Positions 43,230 to 58,316 of a stretch of 64,000 nucleotides of DNA are shown in pieces. Origin of the DNA: Candidatus Scatosoma sp. (lineage in GTDB: Bacteria; Bacillota; Clostridia; Christensenellales; Borkfalkiaceae); contig JAZNXS010000030.1 of assembly GCA_045594025.1 (NCBI GenBank), positions 3,230 to 67,229 of the forward strand, read 5' to 3'. Position 1 is the first letter of the stretch. Every line of letters begins with the position of its first letter. The notes beneath the pieces were generated by a model that saw only the letters and a list, made by a program, of their open reading frames with translations, was not told the origin of the DNA and did no database searches. The translations under genes and the position numbers were made by a program.

Positions 43230-44759
43230 ATGTTGAAAGCGTTATTGACAAAAATGAAAGAAGCCGCCGTATCCGTGCTCCCCGTGGCATTGATCGTGCT
43301 TTTATTAAATTTCACCCCCTTGGTGTCCTTCACCTTGGAGGAGACTATCGTTTTCGCATGCTCTTCCATAGCCCTCATTTTGGGCATCTCCCTTTTTAAC
43401 CTCGGCGCAGACATCTCTATGACGCCTATGGGAGAACAAATCGGTTCGACCTTACCGAAATCCGGGCATTTCAAAACGTTGCTTGCGGTTTGTTTTATTA
43501 TGGGTGTGTTCATCACGATTGCTGAACCCGACTTGTCCGTACTTGCTTCGCAGGTAAAAGACGCCATCGACGGAAAACTGCTTACGGTTGCCATCGGCGT
43601 CGGCGTTGGATTTTTCCTGCTTTTATCGGTGCTGAAAATCGTCTTCCGTATCAGCCTTTCCAAGTTATTGACCTTCTTTTATATGTTGTTGTTTGCGTTG
43701 GTATCCTTGGTTCTGATTAACGGAAACGGAAACTTCCTGCCCCTTGCTTTTGACTCGGGTGGGGTTACCACGGGCCCGATCACCGTGCCTTTTATCATGG
43801 CGCTTGGCGTAGGCGTCTCCGCCAGCCTTGGCGATAAGAAGGATAGAGAATCCAGTTTCGGCTTTATCGCGCTTTGCTCCATCGGCCCTATCCTTGCTGT
43901 TATGCTACTCGGCGTGTTTGCGGATAATCAACTGACTTACACCCTGCCGGATTATTCCATGGAAGCGCACTTGGGTGACTTGTCCTCAACCCTGCTCCAC
44001 ACAATGCAGGAGGTTGTGATTGCTATCGCCCCCATCGTTGCGTGCTTCTTTATTTTACAAGCGCTGTTTATGAAATTGCCGAAAAAGCGTCTTTTGCAGA
44101 TCGTCATCGGTATTTTCTACACCTTCTTCGGTTTGGTGATTTTCCTCACCGCCGTCACCGTCGGTTTTATGCCCATCGGTTTTAAATTAGGAACTCAGCT
44201 CGCGCAGACACATAACGCGCTCCTTGTAGCCATCGCATTCGTGCTTGGGTTTGCCGTCGTTCTTGCCGAACCTGCCATTCACGTTTTGAAACGTCAAGTG
44301 GAAACGGTCACAAACGGCGCCGTTAGTAAAAAATCTATGTTGATTGCGCTCTCCGTGGGCGTAGGCGCATCCATTGCGTTGTCGGTCATCCGCATCATCT
44401 TTAATTTCAGCATTCTTTATTATATGATACCCGGCTATTTCATCTCGCTTGGGTTGTCCTTCTTTGTGCCGAAATTATACACGGCAATCGCATTCGACTC
44501 CGGCGGCGTTGCAAGCGGACCCTTGACGTCGACGTTTATTCTCCCCTTTGTTATCGGGATCTGCGCGACGCTCTATCCCGCCGATCCGAATAACGTGCTC
44601 ACCCTTGCGTTTGGGCTTGTCGCCATGGTTGCCATGACGCCGCTTATCACCATTCAGGCTTTGGGCTTTAAATCCATCGCTACTCAGCACTTCAAAGAAC
44701 GCATCGCTATGCGCCGTATTCTTGACGCAGACGACGAACAGATCATTCAATTTATGTAA
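43230..44759 (+). CDS. DUF1538-like polytopic membrane protein with an internal duplication
   Basis: 509 aa with more than 10 TM helices. A duplicated signature is present: AFDSGGVTTGPITVPFIMALGVG and AFDSGGVASGPLTSTFILPFVIG. Confidence 0.65.
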   Translation: MLKALLTKMKEAAVSVLPVALIVLLLNFTPLVSFTLEETIVFACSSIALILGISLFNLGADISMTPMGEQIGSTLPKSGHFKTLLAVCFIMGVFITIAEPDLSVLASQVKDAIDGKLLTVAIGVGVGFFLLLSVLKIVFRISLSKLLTFFYMLLFALVSLVLINGNGNFLPLAFDSGGVTTGPITVPFIMALGVGVSASLGDKKDRESSFGFIALCSIGPILAVMLLGVFADNQLTYTLPDYSMEAHLGDLSSTLLHTMQEVVIAIAPIVACFFILQALFMKLPKKRLLQIVIGIFYTFFGLVIFLTAVTVGFMPIGFKLGTQLAQTHNALLVAIAFVLGFAVVLAEPAIHVLKRQVETVTNGAVSKKSMLIALSVGVGASIALSVIRIIFNFSILYYMIPGYFISLGLSFFVPKLYTAIAFDSGGVASGPLTSTFILPFVIGICATLYPADPNNVLTLAFGLVAMVAMTPLITIQALGFKSIATQHFKERIAMRRILDADDEQIIQFM

Positions 44760-44775
44760 AACGGGGGTTACAGGT

Positions 44776-45183
44776 ATGAGTTTATTGAAAAAACCTCGCA
44801 AAAACAGAAAAGCCAACCTCGTGGAAAAGGACGCACCTATGAAAGCGGACTTTAAGAAATTAAAGCTGATCGTAACCGTGGTCAACCGCAATAAAACGGA
44901 ATTCTTCCTCGACTATTTAACAACGTTTGGCGTCAACTTCCAAACGGCGGTCGCAGGACAAGGCACAGCAAAATCGGAAACGCTGTATCTGCTTGGTTTG
45001 GAAGATTCGGATAAAGGCATTATTTTTAGCGTTATCAACGAGGACAAAGCGCCTGAGGCTATGCAAGGCTTGGAAGAAAAATTCCACACCATTCGCAACG
45101 GCAAAGGGATTGCATTCACCGTCCCCTTAACCAGCGTCATCGGCGTTGCTATTTACCGTTTTTTAAGTAACAATAGGAAATAA
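44776..45183 (+). CDS. PII-like (GlnB-fold) small regulatory protein with a basic N-terminal extension
   Basis: Start at ATG 44776 with an SD GGGGG. The core KLIVTVVNRNKTEFFLDYL...GIIFSVINEDKAPEA...GIAFTVPLTSVIG looks like a beta-alpha-beta PII fold. Confidence 0.55.
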   Translation: MSLLKKPRKNRKANLVEKDAPMKADFKKLKLIVTVVNRNKTEFFLDYLTTFGVNFQTAVAGQGTAKSETLYLLGLEDSDKGIIFSVINEDKAPEAMQGLEEKFHTIRNGKGIAFTVPLTSVIGVAIYRFLSNNRK

Positions 45184-45195
45184 GGAGAAAGACTC

Positions 45196-45525
45196 ATGAA
45201 ATATAATCACGAAGCTATTTTTTGTATCGTAAACAGCGGTTACAGCGACGTCGTTATGGACGCTGCGAAAAAGCTTGGCGCGCGCGGCGGTACTGTGATC
45301 AACGCCAGAGGTACTGCAAGCAAAGACGCGGAATCCTTCTTTGGAATCACCATTCAACCGGAAAAGGAAATCGTTATGATTCTTGTCCCCTCCTCCATTA
45401 AAGACGACGTTTTACACGCTTTGTATAAGGAAGCAGGGTTGGATACGGCAGGCCAAGGGATTGCCTTTGCGCTGCCCGTAGATAGCGTAGTCGGTCTTGC
45501 CGACTCCACCTCGGAAACGAAATAA
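45196..45525 (+). CDS. PII-like (GlnB-fold) small regulatory protein
   Basis: 109 aa. AIFCIVNSGYSDVVMDAAKKLGARGGTVINARGT...EIVMILVPSSIKDDVLHAL...GIAFALPVDSVVG. Confidence 0.65.
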   Translation: MKYNHEAIFCIVNSGYSDVVMDAAKKLGARGGTVINARGTASKDAESFFGITIQPEKEIVMILVPSSIKDDVLHALYKEAGLDTAGQGIAFALPVDSVVGLADSTSETK

Positions 45526-46949: not shown

Positions 46950-49034
46950 TTATTTGGATCCTGCGTTCGACGGCTCGTTCGCCTCTCGTTTAATAACGGA
47001 ATAATCAATCCTATCTAACGCTTCGCACATGCCGTCGATGACCATATAATCATAACGGTATATCGATGCCAGCGTATTCATATCCGTAGAGCCAACCTTC
47101 TTTTCGCCCTTTTCAGCCGCTTCTTGTAACACTTTTTGCTTATGCTTAAGCAGCTTGTCAAGCCCAGCATACGTCGTCAGGCAGGCATGGCGGAATTTTG
47201 CTCCGTTCTTGTGCTGTAACACGTCCTTACCCTTTTCGTTACGCGTCCAAATAAATTCCTTAAACGGTAAGGGCTTATATCCGGATAACAAGTAGTAGGC
47301 ATTCCAACGGGAATGTTCGATAAACGCCAACACGTTAGCCGCCTGCGTCCCAAAGAAGTAGTTGTAATCCTCCCCTTTGCTATCCATAAAGACGCCGGGG
47401 CAGTGCTTTTCGATTTCCGCTTTCGTAAGTCCTTCCCCTTTACCCTTCTTTAATTCTAAGCCCATAAGATGCAGCTTGAAATAGAGGTTCAGCGCCGCGT
47501 TAATGTTAGAATATTGCTCCACCACGGGCAGCTTTTGCCAGTCGCGTAACTGCGCCCATTTATCTTTCGTGTAATCGTTATATAAGTCGTTTACGTTTTG
47601 AGAGAGCACCATTAAGTCATTGTTAACAATGTTTTCATGCAAGTAACACTCTGCATTCTCCCCGAAATAAACAATGTTTTTCTCGTCTTTGTTCAATAAA
47701 CGACTTTCCTTTCCCTTCGAGCGAACGAAAATCTTGTAATTTTGCTCGTCCTCCAAGTATTTTTTAAGATCGTGCGCGAAATCAGCGTCTTGATAATCGT
47801 CGGATATGGACACGATGAAATACGTATACGTATCTTTGTTGACCAGCGCGCGAATCTGTTTACGCGTCTCCGCAGAATGCGCGTCCATCGGTAAGCTTTC
47901 CTTTAAATCGCAAATCTTTTCCGCTGCGGGTAAATCGGAATTTTTAAAAATCTCGTCGTACTCGTTAATCAGCTTGATAAAATGCTCGTTATTGAAGCGT
48001 TCGCTGTTGTTTTCAAAGGTATAATAATGCACGGGCGCGGCATATAACTGATCCCCTTTTTGCTTTGCAAATTGGAAATTCGTCGCCATCAGTTTGAACA
48101 GCTCATAATTGACTTTTCCAAACCCCAAAAAGACAACGTTGACTTCCTTTTCATCTTTCAACGTTAAGTTCTCGTTGAAAAAGCTACGGGGCATGTACTT
48201 GGTGATGGGGTGTTCCATGATAAAACGGCGCGCCATCAGCTCGTAACGGCAGAACGGCAATACGAACGTATTTGCTTGCTCGGAAACGTCCGAAAGATAC
48301 TTTTCACGCACCATTCCCAGCTCATTTACATTGGCTTCCAAATGTAAAAATAATCGCTTATCCCTCTTTTCCTTCAGTTTCTCAAAACACGATAAAATGG
48401 AAAAGTAGGAATAGCTTGTATCGCGGAATACAATCAAATGATACTCTGCGCCCTTTAAACACTTAGAAACGGTTTTTTCGTTCAATGGCGCTTTATGTAC
48501 GGCATGTTGCTGTTTAATCAAGCTCAAATACGTCTCTTTGTCGATTTCTTCCACCCAAAGCACAGCGCCTTTATGGGCTTCTAAGTATTTCAAAGAGCTG
48601 GGCGACAGTCCGATTACGATGTCGCCGCCCATCATGAAGCTTTTGCGTTTCTTTAAGCCGTTTGTGATTGCCACGCCAAAGAAAACGAAAACGCCGAAGA
48701 TAACGGTGATAAACGAGAGAATGCACGCCCCGATCATCGCTGCATGAAACCAAGGATTCGCTTGACTTAAAGCAAGCACCAACGAATCATTTAATTCCAT
48801 GGATACCATGGATAACGTTTCATGAATGAGTAAAAATAACGTATAGAACGTAATCTTCTCGCCGTTATAAACGGTCGCCATCGTATACAGCGCGTACACC
48901 ACAACAAAGGCGGGCAGCGCATAAATCAAGCTTTTTTTGTCGATCACCGCCCTCTTTTTGATAATCAAATACCCCAAAAACCCGATTAACGCTATTTCTA
49001 TACATAAAAACAATATGCTTAATTCCGTATACAT
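46950..49034 (-). CDS. Polytopic membrane protein with Rossmann-like modules and a C-terminal RyR-like segment (third gene of the TIR operon)
   Basis: 694-aa ORF with an SD GGAGAA. Four to five N-terminal hydrophobic helices span aa ~5-125. Rossmann-like strand-loop starts are DIVIGLSPSS and VNVVFLGFGKVNYEL. The C-terminal IEHSRWNAYYLLSGY...FRHACLTTYAGLDKL resembles the bacterial RyR-domain pattern. Confidence 0.6.
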   Translation of the reverse strand: MYTELSILFLCIEIALIGFLGYLIIKKRAVIDKKSLIYALPAFVVVYALYTMATVYNGEKITFYTLFLLIHETLSMVSMELNDSLVLALSQANPWFHAAMIGACILSFITVIFGVFVFFGVAITNGLKKRKSFMMGGDIVIGLSPSSLKYLEAHKGAVLWVEEIDKETYLSLIKQQHAVHKAPLNEKTVSKCLKGAEYHLIVFRDTSYSYFSILSCFEKLKEKRDKRLFLHLEANVNELGMVREKYLSDVSEQANTFVLPFCRYELMARRFIMEHPITKYMPRSFFNENLTLKDEKEVNVVFLGFGKVNYELFKLMATNFQFAKQKGDQLYAAPVHYYTFENNSERFNNEHFIKLINEYDEIFKNSDLPAAEKICDLKESLPMDAHSAETRKQIRALVNKDTYTYFIVSISDDYQDADFAHDLKKYLEDEQNYKIFVRSKGKESRLLNKDEKNIVYFGENAECYLHENIVNNDLMVLSQNVNDLYNDYTKDKWAQLRDWQKLPVVEQYSNINAALNLYFKLHLMGLELKKGKGEGLTKAEIEKHCPGVFMDSKGEDYNYFFGTQAANVLAFIEHSRWNAYYLLSGYKPLPFKEFIWTRNEKGKDVLQHKNGAKFRHACLTTYAGLDKLLKHKQKVLQEAAEKGEKKVGSTDMNTLASIYRYDYMVIDGMCEALDRIDYSVIKREANEPSNAGSK

Positions 49035-49085
49035 CTCTTTCTCCGCGGCCGTCCATAATCCTATACGGTTATGACGCCGATTCTT

Positions 49086-52031
49086 TTATAATTGATCGAT
49101 GATATGTTTAAACTCAAAATTATTCTCTATCATTCTTTCAAACAGCTCGATACCGATTTGCGTCTTCATTTCGTTTTTCTTGCTCTTCCACTGAGACGCT
49201 TCTTCCTGTGTGAACGTGTATTTTGCGGAAGCATAATACTCGAAGAAGGTATATACCGTCTGCAAAACATTGACGTCGTGCGCAATTTTCGCATTGATAT
49301 TGTTGCTGTTATAGTATCCCGTCCAAACGTTATAATAATACGTGAGGTTGGCAATATTCGGATACGTGCCTTTTAAGAAGAGCTTTCTCATAAAATGATT
49401 TTGCTCGGCAGGATCCATATCCTCAGAGACCATTTTCGCCCCCTGGCTTCTGTTTTGAACCTGCGCCATGTCATGAATCAACAGCATATCCAAAATTTCT
49501 TTTTTGTTATAGCCTTCCGCCGCCATTTCTTCCGGCAGGAAGAGCATCGCCAAGAGCCAAGAGCTAAACATGTGCTCTGAAACGCTTTCCGGTACGTCTA
49601 CCGTATCAATCCATTGCGTCCGTTTAATCTGCCTTAAAACGTTGCACTGATTGTACAGCATCGGGCCGATGTCAAGCCCTCCGTCAGCAAGGAAACGTAA
49701 GAAGTCCTCTTTGACGCTCTCGAAATAATAAAGAATTTTAGAGGATACGATATTGTGCGGCTTTTGTTGATACGTTTCCAAATAACGCACTGCATTTTTG
49801 ACGTAGGTTTGAATGTCAAAGTTAGGCTTTATCACCTTACTTTGAATACGGGTTTGCAATAAGGTAAGCAACGTAACTAGATTGTTCTCTACAAACTTAT
49901 CCCTATTGTTCTCCAACGACGCTTCCACTCTGGCCTCCAACGCCTTGATTGCGCCCTCGCCAAAATTCGGGTTCGTGTCCAGATAGTAGGTGTTATGCGC
50001 CCCCATTTGGTACTGTTCGCTGTAATATTCCACCGTTGCGCCACGGTTTACGGCGTTTGCAATATCGTTGGTGATGACAATACACAAGTATTCGTCCATC
50101 ATGTTGGCTTGGCCGTGGAATAACATACCCGTACAAACCGCGCGGAACAATAAATGCTTATCTAAATTATCCTGCGTGTTCTTGTTGTTGGTTTTCACCG
50201 CAGACTTTAACTTTGTAAACTCCCCTGTTAAGAAGGAAAGGGCATAGTTGACCATCTCCTTGCTGTAATTGATTCTACCAAGCCAAAAGGCTGCGTTCGC
50301 TTTTTGACGAACGTCAAACACCTCATATTTATCGTCGATAAAGGCGATGAATTTCTCCTGCAATTCATAGTTATCTTGTAACATTGCCACTACAAACTGG
50401 TTTGCCGTCGCCGTCAGCATAACTTTGAAGAAATCATAGTTATTCAACGTCTTATAATTTTCGATTTGATAAACGAAATAATACGCAATCAAATACCCTA
50501 AGTAAGTATGATGTTTGTTGGGGAAAGACCACACTTTGCCATCGTAAGCATTATCGATACAGCCGTCACCGCCGCTAAATAAATATTCAAACAGCGTTTT
50601 GGATACCTGCAATAGTCTTTCTTCTTCCAAATATTCCGTCAAAACGAACTTTTCATACATGTCGCTGAGGCAAATATCCGTATCGTAGCTGGTGGCAATT
50701 TCCCTTGCAATGAGCCTGATTAAGAATATATCCACAGAGGGATATTTTAACTTCTTTAACAGGTCGTACACCGTCTCGCAAGCCGCGCTTTCCCCATACA
50801 TTTTTAACACGCTGCGAATCACTTTCGTGATTTTTTGTTTTTGTTCGATAGGGATAGAATGGAATAATAATAAATATCCGCCGCGCATTTCCCCCGCGAT
50901 AGGAATTACCTTCTTTAAGCGTATGCGGTTTTGAATCAAACCCGTATCGATCGCCACTGCTCTATTGTAGCGTTCGAAGGGCTTAAACAGCATATAAATG
51001 ATTTTTTCGGGACTCAGACGGGTAACAACGTACTCTCTTACCCCTTCCAGCAAAAGAACGGGTTTTACTTCTTTGTTTTGCTTAACGTACTGGAAAAATT
51101 CCGCCGTGTCCTCCGAAATCAATTCCTGCATTTCGGATTCCGCATCGTTATAATCAAACTTTTCATAATACCCGATGGACAGGTATATCGGTAAAACGTC
51201 GCTTTCGTTTTTCTCGAAGCGATCCAGCATTTTAAAAAACGCCAGCTGTAATAACATGTTTTTCGCGCTGCCGGGCAACCCCTGCACACGGACGATATTA
51301 TGCTCTTTTGCCGATAAAGCGTCTACCAATAAACGGACGTAATCCGTATCTTGCGAAAGCAGTTCATCCTTGTTATAACCACTCACCGTTTCCGAGAATA
51401 ACACGTTGGCTTCTTTTACAAAGCTATTATACGACTCCTCGCCGTCTACGCGGTCGAATAAGCTGTACGCAAATTTCGAGGAAAGCATCTTCAGTTTCCA
51501 TACGATTGCCTTTCTCGTTAGATTATCTTCTATAACCGCCTTTGCCTTGACGGAAGCCTCTTCTGTCTTTTTTATAATGGGTCTGGGAATGCTCCGCAGC
51601 GTATCTGCGCGCGGAATTTCTTTGCCCTTTGCACCCAGAATGCTCATAATGGTCGAGCGCAGTTTTTCCAGCCCTTCTGCAAAATCGTGATACGCGTCAA
51701 TCCAGTGCTTTCTTCCTAAGTAATACAAAAAGCCGTTGGAAAATTTCACGTTTTCGATTTTGAACGCGATGATGGGTTTTTCGCAATCGAACGCGATTGC
51801 CAGCTCGTTGCTGACGTGGTTAGATTCGTTGGTGTCTTCGGAAGCAACCAACACGAACGCATCGCAATTTTTAATTCCTTCCACAATTTCTGTAGGATAA
51901 TCCTTTCCGGGAGAAATACTGTACGGCGCCATCCAACACCCGATTCCGCTTCTTTGCAGAAATTGATATACGGCGTCTGCGCTTTCTATGTTGTTAGAAG
52001 TATAGCTGATAAAAATCGAATTTGCGTTCAT
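49086..52031 (-). CDS. TIR domain - degenerate P-loop (STAND/NACHT-like) - HD phosphohydrolase fusion protein
   Basis: The start is ATG 52031, with an SD AGGAG 9 nt upstream. GTG 52064 is the long-ORF alternative. TIR-like N-terminus: SIFISY, GCWMAP, CDAFVLVASEDTNESNHVSNELAIA. Central region: VRVQGLPGSAKN and KPVLLLEGVRE. C-terminal HD motif: ESVSEHMFSSWLLA...LLIHDMAQV. Confidence 0.7.
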   Translation of the reverse strand: MNANSIFISYTSNNIESADAVYQFLQRSGIGCWMAPYSISPGKDYPTEIVEGIKNCDAFVLVASEDTNESNHVSNELAIAFDCEKPIIAFKIENVKFSNGFLYYLGRKHWIDAYHDFAEGLEKLRSTIMSILGAKGKEIPRADTLRSIPRPIIKKTEEASVKAKAVIEDNLTRKAIVWKLKMLSSKFAYSLFDRVDGEESYNSFVKEANVLFSETVSGYNKDELLSQDTDYVRLLVDALSAKEHNIVRVQGLPGSAKNMLLQLAFFKMLDRFEKNESDVLPIYLSIGYYEKFDYNDAESEMQELISEDTAEFFQYVKQNKEVKPVLLLEGVREYVVTRLSPEKIIYMLFKPFERYNRAVAIDTGLIQNRIRLKKVIPIAGEMRGGYLLLFHSIPIEQKQKITKVIRSVLKMYGESAACETVYDLLKKLKYPSVDIFLIRLIAREIATSYDTDICLSDMYEKFVLTEYLEEERLLQVSKTLFEYLFSGGDGCIDNAYDGKVWSFPNKHHTYLGYLIAYYFVYQIENYKTLNNYDFFKVMLTATANQFVVAMLQDNYELQEKFIAFIDDKYEVFDVRQKANAAFWLGRINYSKEMVNYALSFLTGEFTKLKSAVKTNNKNTQDNLDKHLLFRAVCTGMLFHGQANMMDEYLCIVITNDIANAVNRGATVEYYSEQYQMGAHNTYYLDTNPNFGEGAIKALEARVEASLENNRDKFVENNLVTLLTLLQTRIQSKVIKPNFDIQTYVKNAVRYLETYQQKPHNIVSSKILYYFESVKEDFLRFLADGGLDIGPMLYNQCNVLRQIKRTQWIDTVDVPESVSEHMFSSWLLAMLFLPEEMAAEGYNKKEILDMLLIHDMAQVQNRSQGAKMVSEDMDPAEQNHFMRKLFLKGTYPNIANLTYYYNVWTGYYNSNNINAKIAHDVNVLQTVYTFFEYYASAKYTFTQEEASQWKSKKNEMKTQIGIELFERMIENNFEFKHIIDQL

Positions 52032-52067
52032 CTCATTTTTCTCCTGTGTAACCTGTCTTGTCACGCT

Positions 52068-53375
52068 TTAAAACCAAACGGTATACATAACGTACCCGGC
52101 GTTAAAAATAAACTCTTCGCCGAAAAAAGCCTCTTCCAAATCGTCGTAATATTCATCCACCCAAGCCAAAACTTCTTTTGCCGTTTCGTCGTTGGGATCT
52201 TCTTTCAGCATCAAGCCGAAATCGTTGGGGATAAAAGCGAACCAAGACTCGAATAACAAGCGCTTCGCTTCATAATCCATACCCGTCGAGTTGATCCCGC
52301 AACGCTCTAAGCGGATATCCTTCGCACCAAGCTTTTTCATGTAGCTGTAAATTTGTCTGCCCGATTTACGGAATCCGCCCAGCTTATTAAACTTGTAGAA
52401 AGACTGAAATTCTTTAAACAGATTGTTTTCATCAGGGTAAGCGAACACCAACGTGTCATCCACGTCGCGAATGAACGCTACTGCATTCGGGTTCATATAT
52501 TTCTTGATTTTTTTCAAAACTTTGAACGGAGATTCCAAATCCAAAATTGTCATAGTAAGATTGAGGAAATCAAAGCCCTTAATACCGCGCTCTTGCATGA
52601 CCCTCGGTAATACTTCGTCAATTTTATCCTTGGTTAAATCCATCAGATAAAACCGCATGTTGTCATGCTCTTCACAGAGTTTATTTCCCTCTTCAATCAT
52701 CTGTTGATCATAGGAGAAATATACGGCTTTGCCCACTTCCTTACGATCGAATCTTCTTATGGTAGAATCTGCGCTAAGCACATTAAAATCCAAAACGGCT
52801 ACGTTCTCGCGGCCCAAAAGCAGCTTATCGTAATACGGCTTTTCATAGCTATACAACAGCTCTTCTTCGTTGTGGATTCTTTCACATTCTACTGCGTCTT
52901 CGGGCATGTAGTATTGATTAACCTTTCTTTCCACTTCCACCTTTTCATTCTTCTCGTAGCGCTCTGTTTTCTCAATACCTAAAATAGGCACCAGCTGTTC
53001 GTAAAGGTGGTAAATACTCTGTTCCAAAGGCTCGCTTACGGCGTCGATCCAATGCAGACGCTTTACGTAATATTCCATGGCTTTGGAAAGAATTCCTTCG
53101 TCCACTTTGAACGGGATAATGGTGATTTCACCGTTTAAAATACGCTTGTACGCCATTTCCACTTCATTTAATACGTGCGGAGATTCCGACGAGTTGTGAT
53201 TGAGAATCAAAACGAAAACTTTGCATTTTTCAATCGCTTCCACGATAGACGTGGCGTAGTCGCCGTAAACGTCCCGAGGCGCATACCAACAACGCACCCC
53301 TCTCGTCTCTAATACAGAACAGATATTATCCGCGATCGATTTCGATTCGTGCTCGTAACTGATGAAAACGTCCAT
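52068..53375 (-). CDS. TIR domain - methyltransferase-fold-like fusion protein
   Basis: 435 aa with an SD AGGGAGA. TIR-like aa 1-135: VFISYEH, VRCWYAPRD, CKVFVLILNHNSSESPHVLNEVEMA. The C-terminal half resembles a class I methyltransferase fold with a degenerate SAM loop: VAVLDFNVLSADS and FDFLNLTMTILDLESPFKVLKKIKKYMNPNAVAFI. Confidence 0.65.
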   Translation of the reverse strand: MDVFISYEHESKSIADNICSVLETRGVRCWYAPRDVYGDYATSIVEAIEKCKVFVLILNHNSSESPHVLNEVEMAYKRILNGEITIIPFKVDEGILSKAMEYYVKRLHWIDAVSEPLEQSIYHLYEQLVPILGIEKTERYEKNEKVEVERKVNQYYMPEDAVECERIHNEEELLYSYEKPYYDKLLLGRENVAVLDFNVLSADSTIRRFDRKEVGKAVYFSYDQQMIEEGNKLCEEHDNMRFYLMDLTKDKIDEVLPRVMQERGIKGFDFLNLTMTILDLESPFKVLKKIKKYMNPNAVAFIRDVDDTLVFAYPDENNLFKEFQSFYKFNKLGGFRKSGRQIYSYMKKLGAKDIRLERCGINSTGMDYEAKRLLFESWFAFIPNDFGLMLKEDPNDETAKEVLAWVDEYYDDLEEAFFGEEFIFNAGYVMYTVWF

Positions 53376-53415
53376 ATAATTTCTCCCTTGTCTTTTGTTA
53401 ATTTTGATTTGGTTA

Positions 53416-54039
53416 TTATGCTTTCGTTCCGCGGCGTATCATGCGGTAGCAAGGAACGTCCGTAAAACCTAAATATTCGGTGGTAATTTCAAAACCCACC
53501 GCTTCGTACGTTTTCAACGCCGCCACGTTATCCTTCACCGATTCGAGGTGGTAGGTCTTGTGAGGCGCGGCTTTTACGTATTCCGCCATCATTTTCTTTC
53601 CAATTCCCAAACCGCGATAACGACTATCTACGCAGACGTTAGCAATATAGACCCCATCGGGCTCGTCCTCAAACAGCTTGTAGTATTCGTTAAACGTTTT
53701 CGTGAACCGATCGCCAACCGCTTCGTTTGCATCGAGAAAACAACGCACCATAGCGCCCAAATCAACGGAGATTGGCGTTTCTTGCGCCACGATAATTCCC
53801 ACAATATTTTCACCGAGCGTTGCAACCGTGATATTGCGATAATTGTAGATCGTATCACTGTGAATCATGTTAATGATTACGGGGATTCCCCTTTCAATAT
53901 CGTTATCGTAAAGATATGGGAACACGTAATCGTCCGTATAATAAATCAGCCGCGCCACTTGCATAAGATCGTCGCTAAGCGATAGCGGCCGCAAAATCAA
54001 ATCTTGCTCCATATTCTCTCTCCTTGGCTTATTTTCCAT
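53416..54039 (-). CDS. GNAT-family N-acetyltransferase
   Basis: Acetyl-CoA motif A YRGLGIGKKMM. 207 aa. Confidence 0.8.
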   Translation of the reverse strand: MENKPRRENMEQDLILRPLSLSDDLMQVARLIYYTDDYVFPYLYDNDIERGIPVIINMIHSDTIYNYRNITVATLGENIVGIIVAQETPISVDLGAMVRCFLDANEAVGDRFTKTFNEYYKLFEDEPDGVYIANVCVDSRYRGLGIGKKMMAEYVKAAPHKTYHLESVKDNVAALKTYEAVGFEITTEYLGFTDVPCYRMIRRGTKA

Positions 54040-54535
54040 ACACTTCCCGATAAATTTCTTTTACTGCTTTTTCCGCGTTCTCTAAAACGCACGGACAACT
54101 CATTAAAATCAAGCGCACCTCGTTGCCGTTCTCTCTGTACGAAGGCTGCATATACGGATATTCGTTCGCTACAAAACCCTGTCTTTGATAAAAAGCAAAG
54201 CGACGCACCGCCATAGGCTCTTGAGGAGGTTCTACCTCCAAGACGATTTGTCCGTAGCGTTGTTTAACAACCCCCAAAGCCGTCCCACCAAGCCCCTTAT
54301 TACGGTGCTCGGCGTAGATGACAAAATGCTCCACAAATGCAAACCCGTCAAATGCCCAAATCGCAATAAAGCCCACGTTTTCGCCATCTTTTTGAAGATG
54401 GTATAAATGATATTTCTCGTGGTCGTAAACCTTTTCGGCTTGCGGAAAGTCTCTTATTTCGTCTAAACAGAAATTTTGCTGCATTTGCACGTAAATTTGT
54501 GCCAAATCCGCTTTTTTCGACAAAACAAGTTGCAT
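54029..54535 (-). CDS. GNAT-family N-acetyltransferase
   Basis: Motif A HRNKGLGGTAL. 168 aa. It overlaps the downstream GNAT gene by 11 nt. Confidence 0.8.
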   Translation of the reverse strand: MQLVLSKKADLAQIYVQMQQNFCLDEIRDFPQAEKVYDHEKYHLYHLQKDGENVGFIAIWAFDGFAFVEHFVIYAEHRNKGLGGTALGVVKQRYGQIVLEVEPPQEPMAVRRFAFYQRQGFVANEYPYMQPSYRENGNEVRLILMSCPCVLENAEKAVKEIYREVYGK

Positions 54536-54659
54536 ACTACTCTCCTTTTTTACATCTTAGCCCTATGCGCGAAGCGCATTATACGTATATTTTAACTGAA
54601 ATGACCGAAAAAGTCAATAGTTTCATGATTATAAGTATAGTTTCACGGAAAATCTAATG

Positions 54660-54688
54660 TAAAAAGCACCCACAAAGGGTGCTTTTTG
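54660..54688 (-). terminator. Bidirectional rho-independent terminator after the ASCH gene
   Basis: AAAAAGCACCC acaa AGGGTGCTTTTT. Confidence 0.75.
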
Positions 54689-54690
54689 CT

Positions 54691-54701
54691 TTGGAGCAGG
54701 T
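54691..54701 (-). repeat. 11-nt direct repeat of the tRNA-Gly 3' end (att-like scar)
   Basis: ttggagcaggt at 54691-54701 is identical to 55779-55789, which covers the CCA end and the 3' acceptor stem of the tRNA. Confidence 0.5.
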
Positions 54702-54786
54702 AATAAAAGTTATATCATGTATAAAACCACGAGAATACTGCCCTCTATTTATTTCTTTTCTCATTAAGTAACTCTCTTACAGTGAT

Positions 54787-55131
54787 TTATTTAAGCCTGA
54801 TTTCAATTCCGACAACACCATAGCATTTTTGCTTTTCCAACGAATAATATGCTTCCATATCTTTGGCAGAGGATGTAGCAATTTCTTCGGGTAAGTAACC
54901 ACATTTATCTAATGGTAATATTTGATACAGTTCTTCAAAATTTGCAAAAATATGTAGTTTCTCAACCACGCAAGAAATTGTAGAATTCGCATCTTTGGTG
55001 TTTGTAAAAATCAATGTGTCACCGATTGAAATTAATTGCCTTTTTTCATCAAACAACCGTAGCTCTATGGTCTTATTACCGTTTGCTATCATTGAAAACG
55101 GTTGTGGGTGAAGCTTCATATAATGTGTCAT
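54787..55131 (-). CDS. ASCH domain protein
   Basis: 114 aa. The N-terminal pattern MKLHPQPFSMIANGNKTIELRLFDEKRQLISIGDTLIF is typical of ASCH. Confidence 0.7.
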   Translation of the reverse strand: MTHYMKLHPQPFSMIANGNKTIELRLFDEKRQLISIGDTLIFTNTKDANSTISCVVEKLHIFANFEELYQILPLDKCGYLPEEIATSSAKDMEAYYSLEKQKCYGVVGIEIRLK

Positions 55132-55133
55132 TG

Positions 55134-55481
55134 TTATTTAGATTCCTTTTTCAGCGTTTTACAACTAGCAATTAGCATTCGTCTAATTCGACCGCAAAGA
55201 TTGCGATAGGTTTTAAAAGTTTCTTCGTCTATGGCGTTAGTGTTAAATAACAGTTTGAGCCAACCTTCGGTTTCGTTACATTCTTTGAGTGCTATTTCAA
55301 ATTTCGATATCATATCTGATTTGCTTTGCCCGTAATTTGCTTCGCGTATATTTGCATAAATACTGCTTGAACTTTTCCGTATTTGGAATATAGTGTTTGA
55401 AGAAGCTTTTATATTCTGACAAAGCAATTCGATTTCAGACGCAAGTTGCTCGGAGTATATCAACAAGTAATTCTTTGGCAT
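55134..55481 (-). CDS. Four-helix-bundle protein (23S rRNA intervening-sequence protein family-like)
   Basis: 115 aa. IRKSSSSIYANIREANYGQSKSDMISKFEIALKECNETEGWLKLL matches the family pattern by eye. Confidence 0.65.
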   Translation of the reverse strand: MPKNYLLIYSEQLASEIELLCQNIKASSNTIFQIRKSSSSIYANIREANYGQSKSDMISKFEIALKECNETEGWLKLLFNTNAIDEETFKTYRNLCGRIRRMLIASCKTLKKESK

Positions 55482-55552
55482 AATATCACCTCTTTATTTC
55501 ATTATACCATAACTACATAAATAAAACAAGAGCTTTTCCCATTTCTGCGTCC

Positions 55553-55736
55553 TCATCACGCCATAGGCGTGTATATCATCAAGGCGCAAGCCTTGTATAT
55601 CACCAACACAAAGTGTTGTATATCATCAAGGCGCAGATAGATACACGCTGATGCGTGATGATATACAGCTCCAAAGGAGCTGATGATATCCACCACACTT
55701 CGTGCGGTGATGATATACCAAGTCTGCGACTTGGAT
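55553..55736. repeat. Hairpin-ladder repeat, GTATATCATCA family
   Basis: GTATATCA(T/C)CA occurs at 55571, 55595 and 55618. The inverted TGATGATAT(A/C)C occurs at 55656, 55681 and 55708. Seven perfect mini-hairpins lie between them (CACGCCataGGCGTG, AAGGCgcaaGCCTT, AACACaaaGTGTT, CACGCtgatGCGTG, AGCTCCaaaGGAGCT, CACCaCACttcGTGcGGTG, CCAAGTCtgcGACTTGG). Confidence 0.75.
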
Positions 55737-55779
55737 AAAAAAATACTGCAGAAAATGTGTCCTTTTCTGCAGTATTTTT
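55733..55779 (-). terminator. Rho-independent terminator downstream of tRNA-Gly
   Basis: 15-bp stem AAATACTGCAGAAAA / TTTTCTGCAGTATTT flanked by A/T runs on both sides. Confidence 0.8.
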
Positions 55780-55854
55780 TGGAGCAGGTGACGAGAGTCG
55801 AACTCGCCGGGAACAGCTTGGGAAGCTGCCGCCATACCGCTAGGCGACACCTGC
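55780..55854 (-). tRNA. tRNA-Gly (anticodon CCC), CCA encoded
   Basis: The reverse complement is GCAGGTGTCGCCTAGCGGTATGGCGGCAGCTTCCCAAGCTGTTCCCGGCGAGTTCGACTCTCGTCACCTGCTCCA, which I folded into a cloverleaf by hand. Features: 7-bp acceptor stem, anticodon loop TTCCCAA, T-loop TTCGACT. Confidence 0.9.
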
Positions 55855-55968
55855 ATTTCAATCTTTACTTTCTTATTATATCCCTTTTAAAAGAAATTGT
55901 CAATCCTTTTTTGCTCTTCCTAAAAAATTTCTTTCATAATATGAAAAACGGGCGCTTTCGCCCGTCAA

Positions 55969-56349
55969 TCACTTCTTTAAACACGCCTTGCACGTGCCAT
56001 AAAATTCTACACTGTAACCACTCACTTGAAACCCATGATTCGCCGTTGCGATCAGTCCCTCCGTAGGAATCCCCGTCGCCATTACATCCGCTACTCTTCC
56101 GCACGTCAAACAACGTGCATGATAATGCGGCGCTACGTTATAATCATAACGTACCTCTTCCCCTGCCGTGCGCAATTCTAATGCCCTGCCGTTCGCCGCA
56201 AAACCTCCCAAAACTCGGAACACTGGTGCACGTGAAACAGTAGGGAAGTTTTCGTGCACATAGCCGTACACCTCCGTGGCTGTCGGGTGATCCAACGTTT
56301 TCAACGCATCATATATAATCTGCTTTTGCTTCGTTTGTCTTTCCTGCAT
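55969..56349 (-). CDS. Fur-family transcriptional regulator (Fur/PerR/Zur type not resolved)
   Basis: 126 aa. N-terminal winged helix, HYHARCLTCG and CKAC metal-site motifs. Confidence 0.8.
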   Translation of the reverse strand: MQERQTKQKQIIYDALKTLDHPTATEVYGYVHENFPTVSRAPVFRVLGGFAANGRALELRTAGEEVRYDYNVAPHYHARCLTCGRVADVMATGIPTEGLIATANHGFQVSGYSVEFYGTCKACLKK

Positions 56350-56474
56350 ACCACTTCCTCCTTTATTAAGATTGAGTACTGATTATAGTATAGCATAGAA
56401 TTTGTCGCTCGTCAAGAGTTTTCGATCAATTTTTTACAGTAAAGAAAAAGGCTCTTTTAACAGAGCCTTTTAGA

Positions 56475-58316
56475 TTATCTTACGTTGTTCACGTTGATGA
56501 TTGCAATTTCTTCACCCGTACCTGCATCTAAGAAAATATAATAATTTTCTTCCCCGTACGAACAAAGAAATTCATACGCCGCGCGTTCCCCTCTTGCGGT
56601 ATCTACCACAGCGAGACGGGAAGCCTCCACCGAGAGTTTTTCGCTGAGCTTTTTATAGGCGGTTTCCATGTTGATTTTTACATTCAACTCGTCCCTGCCC
56701 CTATGATTTTTTAAATATTTCGCAGCATCCATACCTGAAACAACCCCTCTGCTACGACATACTTTTACGTGTACCGTATCCGGATAATACACCACGCCAT
56801 CCTCTTCATAGACAAAGGTGAAATCCACCGTAGAGCCGTTCGCCTTATATCTTGCCACCGTCAAATCTTCATAACCAAGCGTCTTTAAAAATTCTTGCGC
56901 GATTCGTTCTGCGTTATCCATATCAAACTTCTCCGCAGAACATTCTTCATAGTAGTCAAAACGGATTAAATCACCGCTGTTTCTATCTACTTCGGCAAAC
57001 AACATCGAGCCTTTCTCATCAAACCCCTGCACGTTATAAGCCGAATACTTCTGGGTTACCGTTTCGCCAACACATTGAAATTCTTGAATATTATACTTAC
57101 TGAAATAGGTTGCGCAAAGCTCCTCCGCTTTTGCCGTATCCACGGCGGAACCTTTGTTTTCCGCGCCGTTGGATGACTTTGGTTGCATACCTGCCCCCTT
57201 CATTTCTTCCATTTTATTCTCAATAGCAGCCCTATTTTCCGCCAACGTCATATTCTCTAAATTATTCATAACGTCAGACAGCATTCCTTTGCCATCCTTC
57301 ATATAATCCATCCAATCCTGATCCGTCATTTTCTCTGTCAACTTATCCAACTCTGTACGAATAGAGTGGTTGGTTTTATACAAGCTTTCCAACGTTTCCA
57401 TGTCCTGTTTAGATAACGTTCCGCCGTTGCGAAGCTTTGAAAGCATTCTTTCGCTCTCTGCTGCCGTACGATTCAAAAATTCTGTGATGTTGCGTTCTTT
57501 TTCCATCGAAATCGGCAACTTTTCAAGATCCGCTTCCGCAAGACGAGCTTGCACCAAAAGATCGGTTAAAATACGGCTTTGCTGCATCGAAGAAGAGGAA
57601 ACGCGGATTCTATCCAAATCGTCGTCTACGTGTTCCATGATGCCCGTCAACTCGTACATGGTACCCCTCTGTGCAGTCATCATACCCTCTTTCATCGCTT
57701 TCATTTCCATAGCGCCAACGGTAACCGTTGTCGCTAAAGCCAAGGTTGTTACGCCAAGCGCCACAACTGCGGCAATCCAACCGCCATATCCTTTTTCGCG
57801 TTTTTTATTTCCATCCGCGTTGTTTTTGCGGTTTCGGTTTGCTCTGCGTTTTGCTCTTTCCTGATTTCTGTTCGCTTTGGCGTGCGCTCTTTCACGAATC
57901 TTTGCTTCCTTTTCCGCGGCGCGTTTTTCTGCAAGGGCTTTCTTTTCGGCTAAACGCTTTTCAATCACCGCCTTTCTTTCTGCAATTCGCTTTTCACGCG
58001 CGGCTTGGCGTTCTGCCTTTTTCTTGGCTTGCGCTTCTTTGCGCGCCGCCTGCTCTTTTTTCTTTTTTAATGCGCGTTCTACCCGTGCTTTTGCGGCTTC
58101 ACTTTCCTTATCCGCTTTGCTTTCCACACTTTTTTTCACCGTCTGTTTAACAGAGTCGCCAAGCGCGGAATCCCCTTTCGCGCTTTCTTTTTTTACAGTT
58201 TTAACCGCAGTTTTTGTTTTGCCGTTTTGTTCCTTTTTTAATTCCTTTTCAACCGTCTCCACCTTTTCCGCGCCCGAGGACACGTTGGTTGCGATTTCCG
58301 TTTCTTTCTTTTTCAT
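56475..58316 (-). CDS. ypeB: Germination protein YpeB-like with an extended K/E/A-rich N-terminus
   Basis: Start at ATG 58316 with an SD GGGGGAA. A TM segment (GWIAAVVALGVTTLALATTVTV) and PepSY-like C-terminal repeats are present. It lies directly downstream of sleB. Confidence 0.75.
   Translation of the reverse strand: MKKKETEIATNVSSGAEKVETVEKELKKEQNGKTKTAVKTVKKESAKGDSALGDSVKQTVKKSVESKADKESEAAKARVERALKKKKEQAARKEAQAKKKAERQAAREKRIAERKAVIEKRLAEKKALAEKRAAEKEAKIRERAHAKANRNQERAKRRANRNRKNNADGNKKREKGYGGWIAAVVALGVTTLALATTVTVGAMEMKAMKEGMMTAQRGTMYELTGIMEHVDDDLDRIRVSSSSMQQSRILTDLLVQARLAEADLEKLPISMEKERNITEFLNRTAAESERMLSKLRNGGTLSKQDMETLESLYKTNHSIRTELDKLTEKMTDQDWMDYMKDGKGMLSDVMNNLENMTLAENRAAIENKMEEMKGAGMQPKSSNGAENKGSAVDTAKAEELCATYFSKYNIQEFQCVGETVTQKYSAYNVQGFDEKGSMLFAEVDRNSGDLIRFDYYEECSAEKFDMDNAERIAQEFLKTLGYEDLTVARYKANGSTVDFTFVYEEDGVVYYPDTVHVKVCRSRGVVSGMDAAKYLKNHRGRDELNVKINMETAYKKLSEKLSVEASRLAVVDTARGERAAYEFLCSYGEENYYIFLDAGTGEEIAIINVNNVR

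Follow-up and report, generated by a model that had tools for sequence, protein, structure and literature searches.

What purpose is served by one protein chain that carries a TIR domain at its N-terminus and a nucleotidase-like HD domain at its C-terminus? The question is raised by a minus-strand gene in a 64,000-nucleotide stretch of DNA from Candidatus Scatosoma sp. (contig JAZNXS010000030.1, positions 3,230 to 67,229), which is referred to here as the window and whose numbering is used throughout. A preliminary description had read the product as a TIR domain fused to a degenerate P-loop core and an HD phosphohydrolase, and had proposed a self-limiting signal generator, an effector that depletes deoxynucleoside triphosphates (dNTPs) or NTPs, or a producer and eraser pair. 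We found that the chain consists, in this order, of a TIR domain, a disordered linker, a NACHT-like module, a helical domain, and an HD domain of the YfbR/HDDC2 type. The reading that we favor is a stand-alone NLR-like sensor of the STAND superfamily with a TIR NADase effector, probably acting in anti-phage defense or abortive infection, and we place about half of our confidence in it.

The minus-strand open reading frame (ORF) extends over 49086..52064 and opens at GTG; the likelier start is the ATG at 52031, which has AGGAG 9 nt upstream. The product from this ATG has 981 amino acids (aa) and is 100% identical to the database protein P0001. The coordinates of the preliminary description (49086..52031, stop codon included) thus delimit the right gene. 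We collected 77 full-length homologs at 38-77% identity, and one more at 29%, all from metagenome-assembled genomes of gut-type Clostridia, e.g. Christensenella, Lachnospiraceae, Oscillospiraceae, and Coproplasma. Since all features of the TIR–STAND(NACHT-like)–helical–HD_3 architecture are kept in the 77 full-length homologs, it is not due to chance. The mean pairwise identity was alike for the TIR, nucleotide-binding, helical, and HD domains (0.52-0.55) and fell to 0.09 in the unconserved linker (aa 135-169; 51525..51629). In an AlphaFold2 model of the whole protein built from 63 homologs, with a predicted local distance difference test score (pLDDT) of 86.8 and a predicted TM-score (pTM) of 0.74, the only disordered stretch (pLDDT <50) was aa 135-168.

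The TIR domain occupies aa 1-134 (51630..52031, on the minus strand as are all features of the gene). Pfam TIR_2 (PF13676) matched aa 6-124 with an E-value of 7.9e-20 (72 bits against a cutoff of 28), and in Foldseek the TIR part of the model superposed on the NADase TIR domains of SPARTA and SARM1 with a root-mean-square deviation of 2-3 Å. The putative catalytic residue Glu76 (51804-51806), which lies in SNHVSNELAI (51795-51824), was invariant in 63/63 aligned close homologs, and hhalign paired it with the Glu of the SARM1 sequence 'WVHKEIV'. The presence of a conserved catalytic-type Glu in the alpha-C helix suggests that the TIR domain is NADase-competent. The window protein gave only TIR-level partial matches to PADLOC v2 (aa 3-128, E 3e-7 to 4e-4), and none of its models, which include those for Thoeris, Avs, bNACHT, and CBASS, matched over the full length.

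For aa 170-794 of the window protein and 17 relatives, nothing was detected with Pfam, NCBIfam, or PADLOC. Pfam NACHT (PF05729) matched neither the window protein nor the 17 relatives, and sub-threshold matches to P-loop families (nSTAND3, AAA_22, NPHP3_N) appeared only in relatives with canonical motifs. When the whole model was compared with the PDB by Foldseek, the top match was the plant TIR-NLR RPP1 (7dfv_B, E 5.4e-7), followed by NLRP3, NLRP9, NLRC4/NAIP, Apaf-1, an archaeal STAND protein, and ORC1. A second AlphaFold2 model, of aa 170-795 alone (pLDDT 86.6, pTM 0.85), retrieved NLRP9 (5.5e-6), NLRP3, NLRP2/7, Apaf-1, the archaeal STAND 6mfv, and ORC/Cdc6 at E-values of 5.5e-6 to 1e-3 and probabilities of 0.98-1.0. 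The models predict a P-loop alpha/beta domain followed by helical and winged-helix domains, the arrangement of the STAND superfamily. The predicted STAND/NACHT-like nucleotide-binding oligomerization module corresponds to aa 170-500 (50532..51524) and comprises N-terminal helices, the P-loop alpha/beta domain, and helical and winged-helix-like parts.

The preliminary description had reported a Walker A position reading GLPGSAKN and a Walker B-like VLLLEGVRE about 70 aa later. Re-translation confirmed both, at aa 251-258 (51258..51281) and aa 325-333 (51033..51059), respectively, 67 aa apart. The former departs from the canonical GxxxxGK[ST]. The latter, with E-G-V-R-E in the window protein and hhhh[ED][AG][IV]RE as the consensus of its clade, departs from D[GAS]hDE, the signature that defines NACHT modules (Kibby et al., bioRxiv 10.1101/2022.07.19.500537). 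At an overall identity of ~47%, G251, G254, K257, and R332 were invariant in the 63 aligned close homologs, an acidic residue (E or D) occupied position 329 in 63/63, and A256 (59/63) and N258 (62/63) were near-invariant. Distant relatives contain canonical GxxGxGK[ST] together with hhhhDGxDE[YH], in which DGxDE is a NACHT signature of the D[GAS]hDE type. Descent from a NACHT-type ancestor is therefore likely although the window protein itself does not carry the motif. Intermediates were also found (GPLGSYKNR with DGIRDF, GNSGSEKNA with DGLRDF). Across ~190 proteins, counted without correction for phylogeny, GK[ST] went with D or E at Walker-B+3 in 53 and xKN with Arg in 98, while GK[ST] with Arg occurred in 4 and xKN with an acidic residue in none. 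The almost perfect covariation of the two sites indicates selected remodeling rather than decay. Judged from these patterns, the ATP-binding site of the window clade has been rebuilt under selection, GK[ST] being replaced by xKN and the second acidic residue of DGxDE by an invariant Arg. The remodeled site appears to be under strong selection, yet canonical Mg2+-ATP hydrolysis has most likely been lost, because the Mg2+-handling Ser/Thr and the acidic pair are replaced jointly by Asn and Arg, and because the residues that take the place of the glycine before the lysine should crowd the phosphate loop. These family-wide, conserved, and co-varying changes lend evolutionary support to the earlier suggestion that the NTPase core may be non-hydrolyzing. 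Degenerate ATPase motifs are on record for the defense STAND KpAvs8 (PMC13581612), and the iSTANDs are STAND modules with disrupted NTP-binding motifs in predicted immune systems (PMC8195603).

The C-terminal HD domain (aa 795-981; 49089..49649) was matched over aa 797-955 by Pfam HD_3, whose cutoff of 22.5 bits was well exceeded (54 bits, E 2.4e-14). Its nearest solved relative is human HDDC2, which was found with an E-value of 1.8e-4 by the single sequence and 1e-12 by the family profile. A profile of the canonical-motif relatives (A3) matched HDDC2 (2e-27), yeast YGL101W (7e-27), and YfbR (1e-5), and the target-normalized TM-score of the C-terminus against HDDC2 (4dmb/4l7w) in Foldseek was 0.72. 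The metal ligands H820, H853, D854, and D919, which correspond to H33, H68, D69, and D137 of YfbR, were invariant in 63/63 homologs, and R804 and W807, the equivalents of the substrate clamp R18/W19 of YfbR, were conserved. The full set of YfbR residues for substrate and deoxyribose is not present in the window copy: HDMAQVQNRS (aa 853-862; 49446-49475) has Q857 at the position of E72 and S862 at that of D77, and the nearest relative, P0002, has Q and P there. Among the close homologs, E857 was kept in 46/63 and absent in 17/63, and D862 was kept in 45/63. The family consensus HDMAEAxxGD (HDxAExxxGD) corresponds to the YfbR motif HDASEVLTGD, and E72 of YfbR also has a role in the enzyme mechanism. 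A handful of members of the wider family lack the Asp of the HD dyad and retain the domain. Substitution of R18, W19, D77, or a metal ligand inactivates YfbR, in which D77 binds the deoxyribose (reviewed in PMC8177086). A plain role in depleting dNTPs, as had been proposed, or one on deoxynucleoside monophosphates (dNMPs), is thus doubtful for the window copy, in which the equivalents of E72 and D77 are lost. With its metal ligands and R/W clamp kept and these two residues lost, the pocket may bind a ligand without turnover.

Taken together, Pfam, the PDB profile searches, and the AlphaFold2/Foldseek comparisons agree with the three domain calls of the preliminary description, namely the TIR domain, the STAND-like core with a non-canonical P-loop, and the YfbR-type HD domain with its H...HD signature. 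That description had named the absence of an HD fold, a middle region of other than P-loop type, and unconserved regions as findings that would speak against it; what was obtained was the HDDC2 fold, NLR fold matches, and conservation among the homologs.

The STAND module and the HD domain are joined by a conserved domain (aa 501-794; 49650..50531) that is all-helical by predicted secondary structure and contains invariant motifs such as NRGATVEYY. It accompanies the STAND core in all relatives that have this core, and its mean pairwise identity (0.52) is on par with that of the enzymatic domains. This lack of hypervariability favors a conserved ligand or target over a diversifying protein-antigen receptor. 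When 1.84 billion cluster representatives were searched with a profile of the middle region, 480 were retrieved at E<=1e-3 and 148 at E<=1e-30. Domain hidden Markov models (HMMs) cut from the close family were then used to scan the 146 new representatives among 150 listed. The STAND, helical, and HD domains occurred together in 102 of the 146, of which 82 were without a TIR domain by the family-derived profile and 20 were with it; in the other 44, mostly shorter proteins, one or more of these three core domains were missing. The sampled N-termini contained PRTase-CE, PNP_UDP_1 (nucleosidase-like), or caspase-like Peptidase_C14 domains, and several had no Pfam match. PADLOC places the PNP_UDP_1 and PRTase-CE N-termini among known defense effectors, and the chassis of these relatives was matched by none of its models. 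The STAND, helical, and HD domains form a constant chassis, at the N-terminus of which effectors of death or nucleotide attack are swapped. The architecture is the one usual for STAND proteins, in which the N-terminal effector can be exchanged and the core is constant, and here the core includes the HD domain. Because the HD domain is constant with any N-terminal effector, including the caspase-like one, which involves no nucleotide signal, it is tied to the chassis and not to the chemistry of the TIR domain.

Several relatives depart from this layout. P0218 (1,900 aa) is a tandem double-NLR, in which PNP–STAND–helical–HD is followed by a second, canonical NACHT module and TPR repeats. The long variants P0062, P0005, P0069, P0080, and P0083 (1,213-1,466 aa; loci of the L019 type) have an extension of ~230 aa ahead of the TIR domain. 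In P0062 this extension gave a weak GNAT match (E 0.006); homology to the GNAT genes of the window was considered and rejected, since no pairwise similarity was found. At the other extreme, minimal relatives of 830-834 aa with canonical GK[ST] and DGxDE are encoded in L050 (5514-8493) and L051 (3604-6706), one in an element rich in serine recombinases and the other beside an ATPase of the OLD family (AAA_15/TOPRIM). Small adjacent or overlapping ORFs of 161 and 202 aa, whose families are unassigned, precede them in these two loci, and at least the 161-aa product has an apparently hydrophobic N-terminus as judged by eye from the alignment. Among viral structures, the whole model was matched best by BFVD A0A8S5V3T3 (Siphoviridae sp., E 7.4e-6), an 822-aa NLR-like protein of a phage or prophage, which indicates that phages too carry STAND proteins of such general shape.

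Beyond the domain identities, conservation patterns, modularity, and mobility observed in this study, we infer a trigger, oligomerization, and NADase activity as follows. The constant C-terminal module, composed of the helical domain and the HD pocket, would read the trigger, and the most plausible ligand would be a nucleotide-like small molecule at the HD metal site. The trigger would relieve autoinhibition and allow the STAND module to oligomerize, with the remodeled P-loop serving as a nucleotide-independent or binding-only assembly scaffold without canonical Mg2+-dependent ATP hydrolysis. The clustered TIR domains would then form active NADase sites, which would lead to NAD+ depletion or to an NAD-derived signal. 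A more specific version of this scheme, which we advance tentatively and consider rather unlikely in its entirety, is that the YfbR-like HD domain serves as the ligand sensor of an NLR for a 5'-(deoxy)nucleotide-like molecule arising in infection, e.g. a nucleotide modified by the phage or dNMPs released as host DNA is broken down. Binding at the metal site would license the oligomerization of a STAND module that dispenses with Mg2+-ATP hydrolysis, and so drive a TIR, PNP, PRTase, or caspase death effector; copies with E857Q and D862S would be natural substrate-trap sensors. The difference in constraint between the effector and the HD domain, in that TIR Glu76 is invariant whereas E857 (46/63) and D862 (45/63) vary, favors the sensor reading. 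For small-molecule sensing at the C-terminus of an NLR, a precedent has been proposed in the GUN4 domains (Kibby et al., bioRxiv 10.1101/2022.07.19.500537), and the Clover system (PMC12265719) is a defense in which changes of the nucleotide pool are sensed.

Several observations weigh against an NLR-like sensor with a TIR effector. The STAND fold matches have modest TM-scores (0.2-0.43), as is expected of multi-domain proteins in different conformations. PDB sequence-profile searches with the close-family (A1) and canonical-motif (A3) profiles did not reach NLRs significantly, the best matches being Cdc6 (E 0.024) and NLRC4 (E 0.19), and the core is recognized by no HMM library among Pfam, NCBIfam, and PADLOC. 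Since sequence profiles fall short of the NLRs, the STAND assignment rests on the fold and on the continuity of motifs with distant relatives. The covariation of the Walker sites was, as stated, counted without correction for phylogeny, and many homologs lie in ordinary housekeeping neighborhoods. The minimal relatives of ~830 aa have almost no N-terminal domain, so the HD domain itself could be the effector, and the full YfbR set (RW..H..HD..E..GD..D) is near-universal in the wider family, which fits an active enzyme, and hence a co-effector, equally well.

The last two points lead to the alternative that survives best, which we regard as possible though not probable. Here the HD domain would be a second, constant effector that dephosphorylates dNMPs or other nucleotides, e.g. 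to block the reuse of host-DNA breakdown products by a phage; the N-terminal domain would provide a second weapon, and sensing would fall to the helical domain. The near-universal catalytic and specificity set (RWHHDEGDD) and the strong match of the A3 profile to the characterized 5'-nucleotidases HDDC2, YGL101W, and YfbR are as expected of such an enzyme, and in the ~830-aa relatives that lack an N-terminal effector the HD domain is the sole recognizable enzyme, although the small ORFs preceding these minimal forms could supply an effector. However, a STAND protein normally carries its swappable effector and its sensor at opposite ends, and the HD domain is never swapped. Furthermore, the E72-like and D77-like residues are missing from the window copy and the relatives closest to it, D77 cannot be substituted in YfbR without inactivation, and the Glu is absent in 17/63 close homologs in contrast to the invariant Glu of the TIR domain.

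The genomic setting bears on whether the protein acts alone. The gene lies in a same-strand run of two GNAT genes, a gene for a TIR–S-adenosylmethionine (SAM)-methyltransferase, the TIR–STAND–HD gene, a gene for a 694-aa membrane protein, and an M20 peptidase gene. The genes are separated by gaps of 29-52 nt. Ahead of the first GNAT gene there are promoter-like sites, and beyond the M20 gene there is a terminator-like hairpin. The upstream neighbor (52068..53375, minus strand) encodes a 435-aa fusion of a TIR domain (Pfam TIR_2, E 1.5e-18) and a SAM-methyltransferase-like part with weak Methyltransf_23/31 matches; at least 282 homologs were found, and in many of them the methyltransferase domain is clear. 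The downstream neighbor (46950..49034, minus strand) encodes the 694-aa multi-pass membrane protein, for which no match was found in Pfam, PADLOC, NCBIfam, or PDB sequences and whose family has 89 members. In four loci from related genomes (L052-L055), the cassette of two GNAT genes, the TIR-methyltransferase gene, and the membrane protein gene is present without the TIR–STAND–HD gene. By blastn, L052 2623-5082 corresponds to window 54536-52068 and L052 5135-7155 to window 49034-47017, with a spacer of 52 bp between the two in L052. The collinearity is lost exactly where the TIR-methyltransferase gene ends, at its stop codon, and restarts at the start codon of the membrane protein gene, which indicates that 49035..52067 (minus strand) is a 3,033-bp single-gene insertion that replaces the 52-bp spacer. 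The cassette, complete without the inserted gene in those genomes, may itself constitute a separate TIR-based system. The G+C content falls from ~0.48 to 0.39-0.43 over window ~47000-57000, which covers the cassette, the inserted gene, and tRNA-linked genes, and this fits horizontally acquired DNA. One homolog lies in a conjugative element with a SIR2 gene nearby. These data fit an autonomous, horizontally moving single-gene module that tends to land in TIR-rich or defense-like spots and does without fixed partners.

An alternative that we consider improbable is that the protein works jointly with the flanking TIR-methyltransferase and membrane protein in a TIR system of several genes, e.g. 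one in which several TIR proteins feed a membrane effector. The compact one-strand run with promoter-like sites and a terminator-like hairpin at its ends would suit such a system. A homolog of the membrane protein adjoins the TIR–STAND–HD gene in L004 and L056, lies ~4 kb from it in L035, and adjoins the TIR-methyltransferase gene in L052-L055; in the locus of the nearest relative, a homolog with 65% identity follows the gene and the upstream region differs. Further TIR genes, including those for TIR proteins with leucine-rich repeats (LRRs), were found within 5 kb in 12/42 loci. Nevertheless, both neighbors are missing from most TIR–STAND–HD loci, the cassette is intact without the cleanly inserted gene, and eleven more distant membrane-protein loci in metagenomes have no TIR neighbor. 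The last result also led us to reject an obligate link between the wider membrane protein family and TIR proteins, and the 691-aa gene downstream in L001, considered as a homolog of the membrane protein gene, was found to be unrelated.

Other features of these loci were recorded. In L020 (10867-12927) and L023 (10971-12929), the gene that directly follows the TIR–STAND–HD homolog encodes a TIR-LRR protein (652-686 aa). L007, L014, L019, L020, L023, and L038 have in common an upstream block that encodes a protein of 1,083-1,389 aa without a Pfam match, and transglutaminase-core proteins were found in this block in L007 and L020, the two loci scanned. The cassette (window 52068-54535 and 46950-49034, minus strand) is accompanied in L055 by syntenic YpeB and FUR genes. 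Upstream of the cassette in the window lies tRNA-Gly(CCC) (55780-55854, minus strand), and an exact 12-nt copy of its 3' end (TTTGGAGCAGGT) was found at 54690-54701. The two copies flank ~1.1 kb with an ASCH-domain gene (54787-55131) and a gene of the 23S-rRNA-IVP family (55134-55481), which looks like what is left of a small insertion targeted to the tRNA gene. Window 55553-55635, immediately downstream of tRNA-Gly, contains two 36-nt direct repeats that are 47 nt apart, 78% identical, and share GTATATCATCAAGGCGCA. Just beyond the low-G+C region, window 43230-45525 encodes on the plus strand a DUF1538 membrane protein followed by two small P-II-like proteins.

The pairing of TIR and HD domains that had been singled out in the preliminary description as a self-limiting generator or a producer and eraser pair was not borne out as a special relationship. 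In such a pair the TIR domain would make an NAD-derived signal and the HD domain of the same chain would degrade it. HD-superfamily phosphodiesterases that degrade signaling nucleotides do exist, and the chain contains both domains, each of them conserved. However, the HD domain stays with the STAND and helical domains irrespective of the N-terminal effector; it occurs with PNP-like, PRTase-CE, or caspase-like domains or with no effector, and is therefore not specifically matched to TIR products. It also belongs to the subfamily of mononuclear monophosphatases (YfbR/HDDC2) and not to the phosphodiesterase type with extra His ligands, and the window copy lacks the equivalents of E72 and D77 of the YfbR mechanism. 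We consider this alternative very unlikely. Least probable of all is a non-immune, housekeeping role for the protein in regulating the NAD or nucleotide metabolism of gut Clostridia, to which some ordinary metabolic neighborhoods and a separate YfbR-like gene a few kb away in L002 could point, but which is at odds with the patchy distribution and varying contexts, the single-gene insertion, the exchange of effectors for domains of the conflict-system type, and the location of relatives on mobile elements and in defense-like neighborhoods.

If the protein is an NLR-like sensor with a TIR effector, two of its features are unusual, namely an enzyme-type nucleotide pocket in the constant module and a selected rewrite of the ATPase site. 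The characterized NLR-like or STAND defense proteins of bacteria mostly recognize phage proteins, and the fixed C-terminal nucleotidase-type pocket makes this family a concrete candidate for an NLR that reads a nucleotide-like metabolite. Were the HD domain the sensor, an enzyme-derived small-molecule receptor would drive a death effector. Since one family spans canonical NACHT-type members, intermediates, and the xKN/R clade, it could show how an NLR functions without canonical ATP hydrolysis. A chassis of ~480 representatives that is missed by Pfam, NCBIfam, and PADLOC has been overlooked by current defense annotation in gut Clostridia, and in the literature that we searched we found no description of a STAND/NACHT family with a C-terminal HD_3 domain.

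How does the window protein compare with known systems? The plant TIR-NLRs RPP1 and ROQ1 likewise place a TIR domain ahead of a STAND core, and RPP1 was the top structural match. In these proteins, activation occurs by the oligomerization-induced assembly of the TIR NADase. They differ in having an NB-ARC core with canonical motifs, an LRR/C-JID protein sensor, and no HD domain, and a relationship to the window protein was not detected at the sequence level. The YfbR/HDDC2/yeast YGK1 5'-deoxynucleotidases share the fold, the mononuclear H..HD..D metal site, and the R/W substrate clamp with the C-terminus, but they are free-standing proteins of ~200 aa, whereas here the domain ends a STAND protein and has, in the window copy, Q and S for the E72 and D77 equivalents. 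Bacterial dGTPase, CloA of Clover, and SAMHD1 also place an HD-superfamily domain in an antiviral setting (PMC12265719); unlike the present domain, they are oligomeric, allosteric dNTP triphosphohydrolases of another HD subfamily with no fusion to STAND or TIR domains. The iSTAND and iSTAND2 proteins of the MoxR–vWA ternary conflict systems (PMC7159879, PMC8195603) resemble the window protein as STANDs with eroded NTP-binding motifs in predicted immune systems. They are components of three-gene systems, however, whereas no MoxR or vWA genes were found beside the gene in the window or in the sampled loci, and the window clade shows a specific conserved substitution pattern rather than erosion. 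The Avs proteins are single-gene STAND defense systems with variable N-terminal effectors, and KpAvs8 has degenerate Walker motifs (PMC13581612). Their sensors recognize phage proteins through TPR-like domains, an HD-type C-terminal module goes unmentioned in that study, and no Avs model matches the window protein. The bNACHT proteins (Kibby et al., bioRxiv 10.1101/2022.07.19.500537) likewise combine in a single chain an effector at the N-terminus, TIR included, a NACHT-type STAND module in the center, and a sensor at the C-terminus. In addition, distant relatives in the window family contain DGxDE, and the best fold matches are NACHT NLRs. Unlike the bNACHT proteins, the window protein is missed by Pfam NACHT and all PADLOC models, its clade has xKN for GK[ST] and Arg for the first acidic residue past the Walker B Asp, and its C-terminus consists of a helical domain and a YfbR-type HD fold instead of repeats or the FGS, transmembrane, or short SNaCT-type sensors. 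It is best filed with an already known kind of system, NLR-like single-gene defense with a TIR effector.

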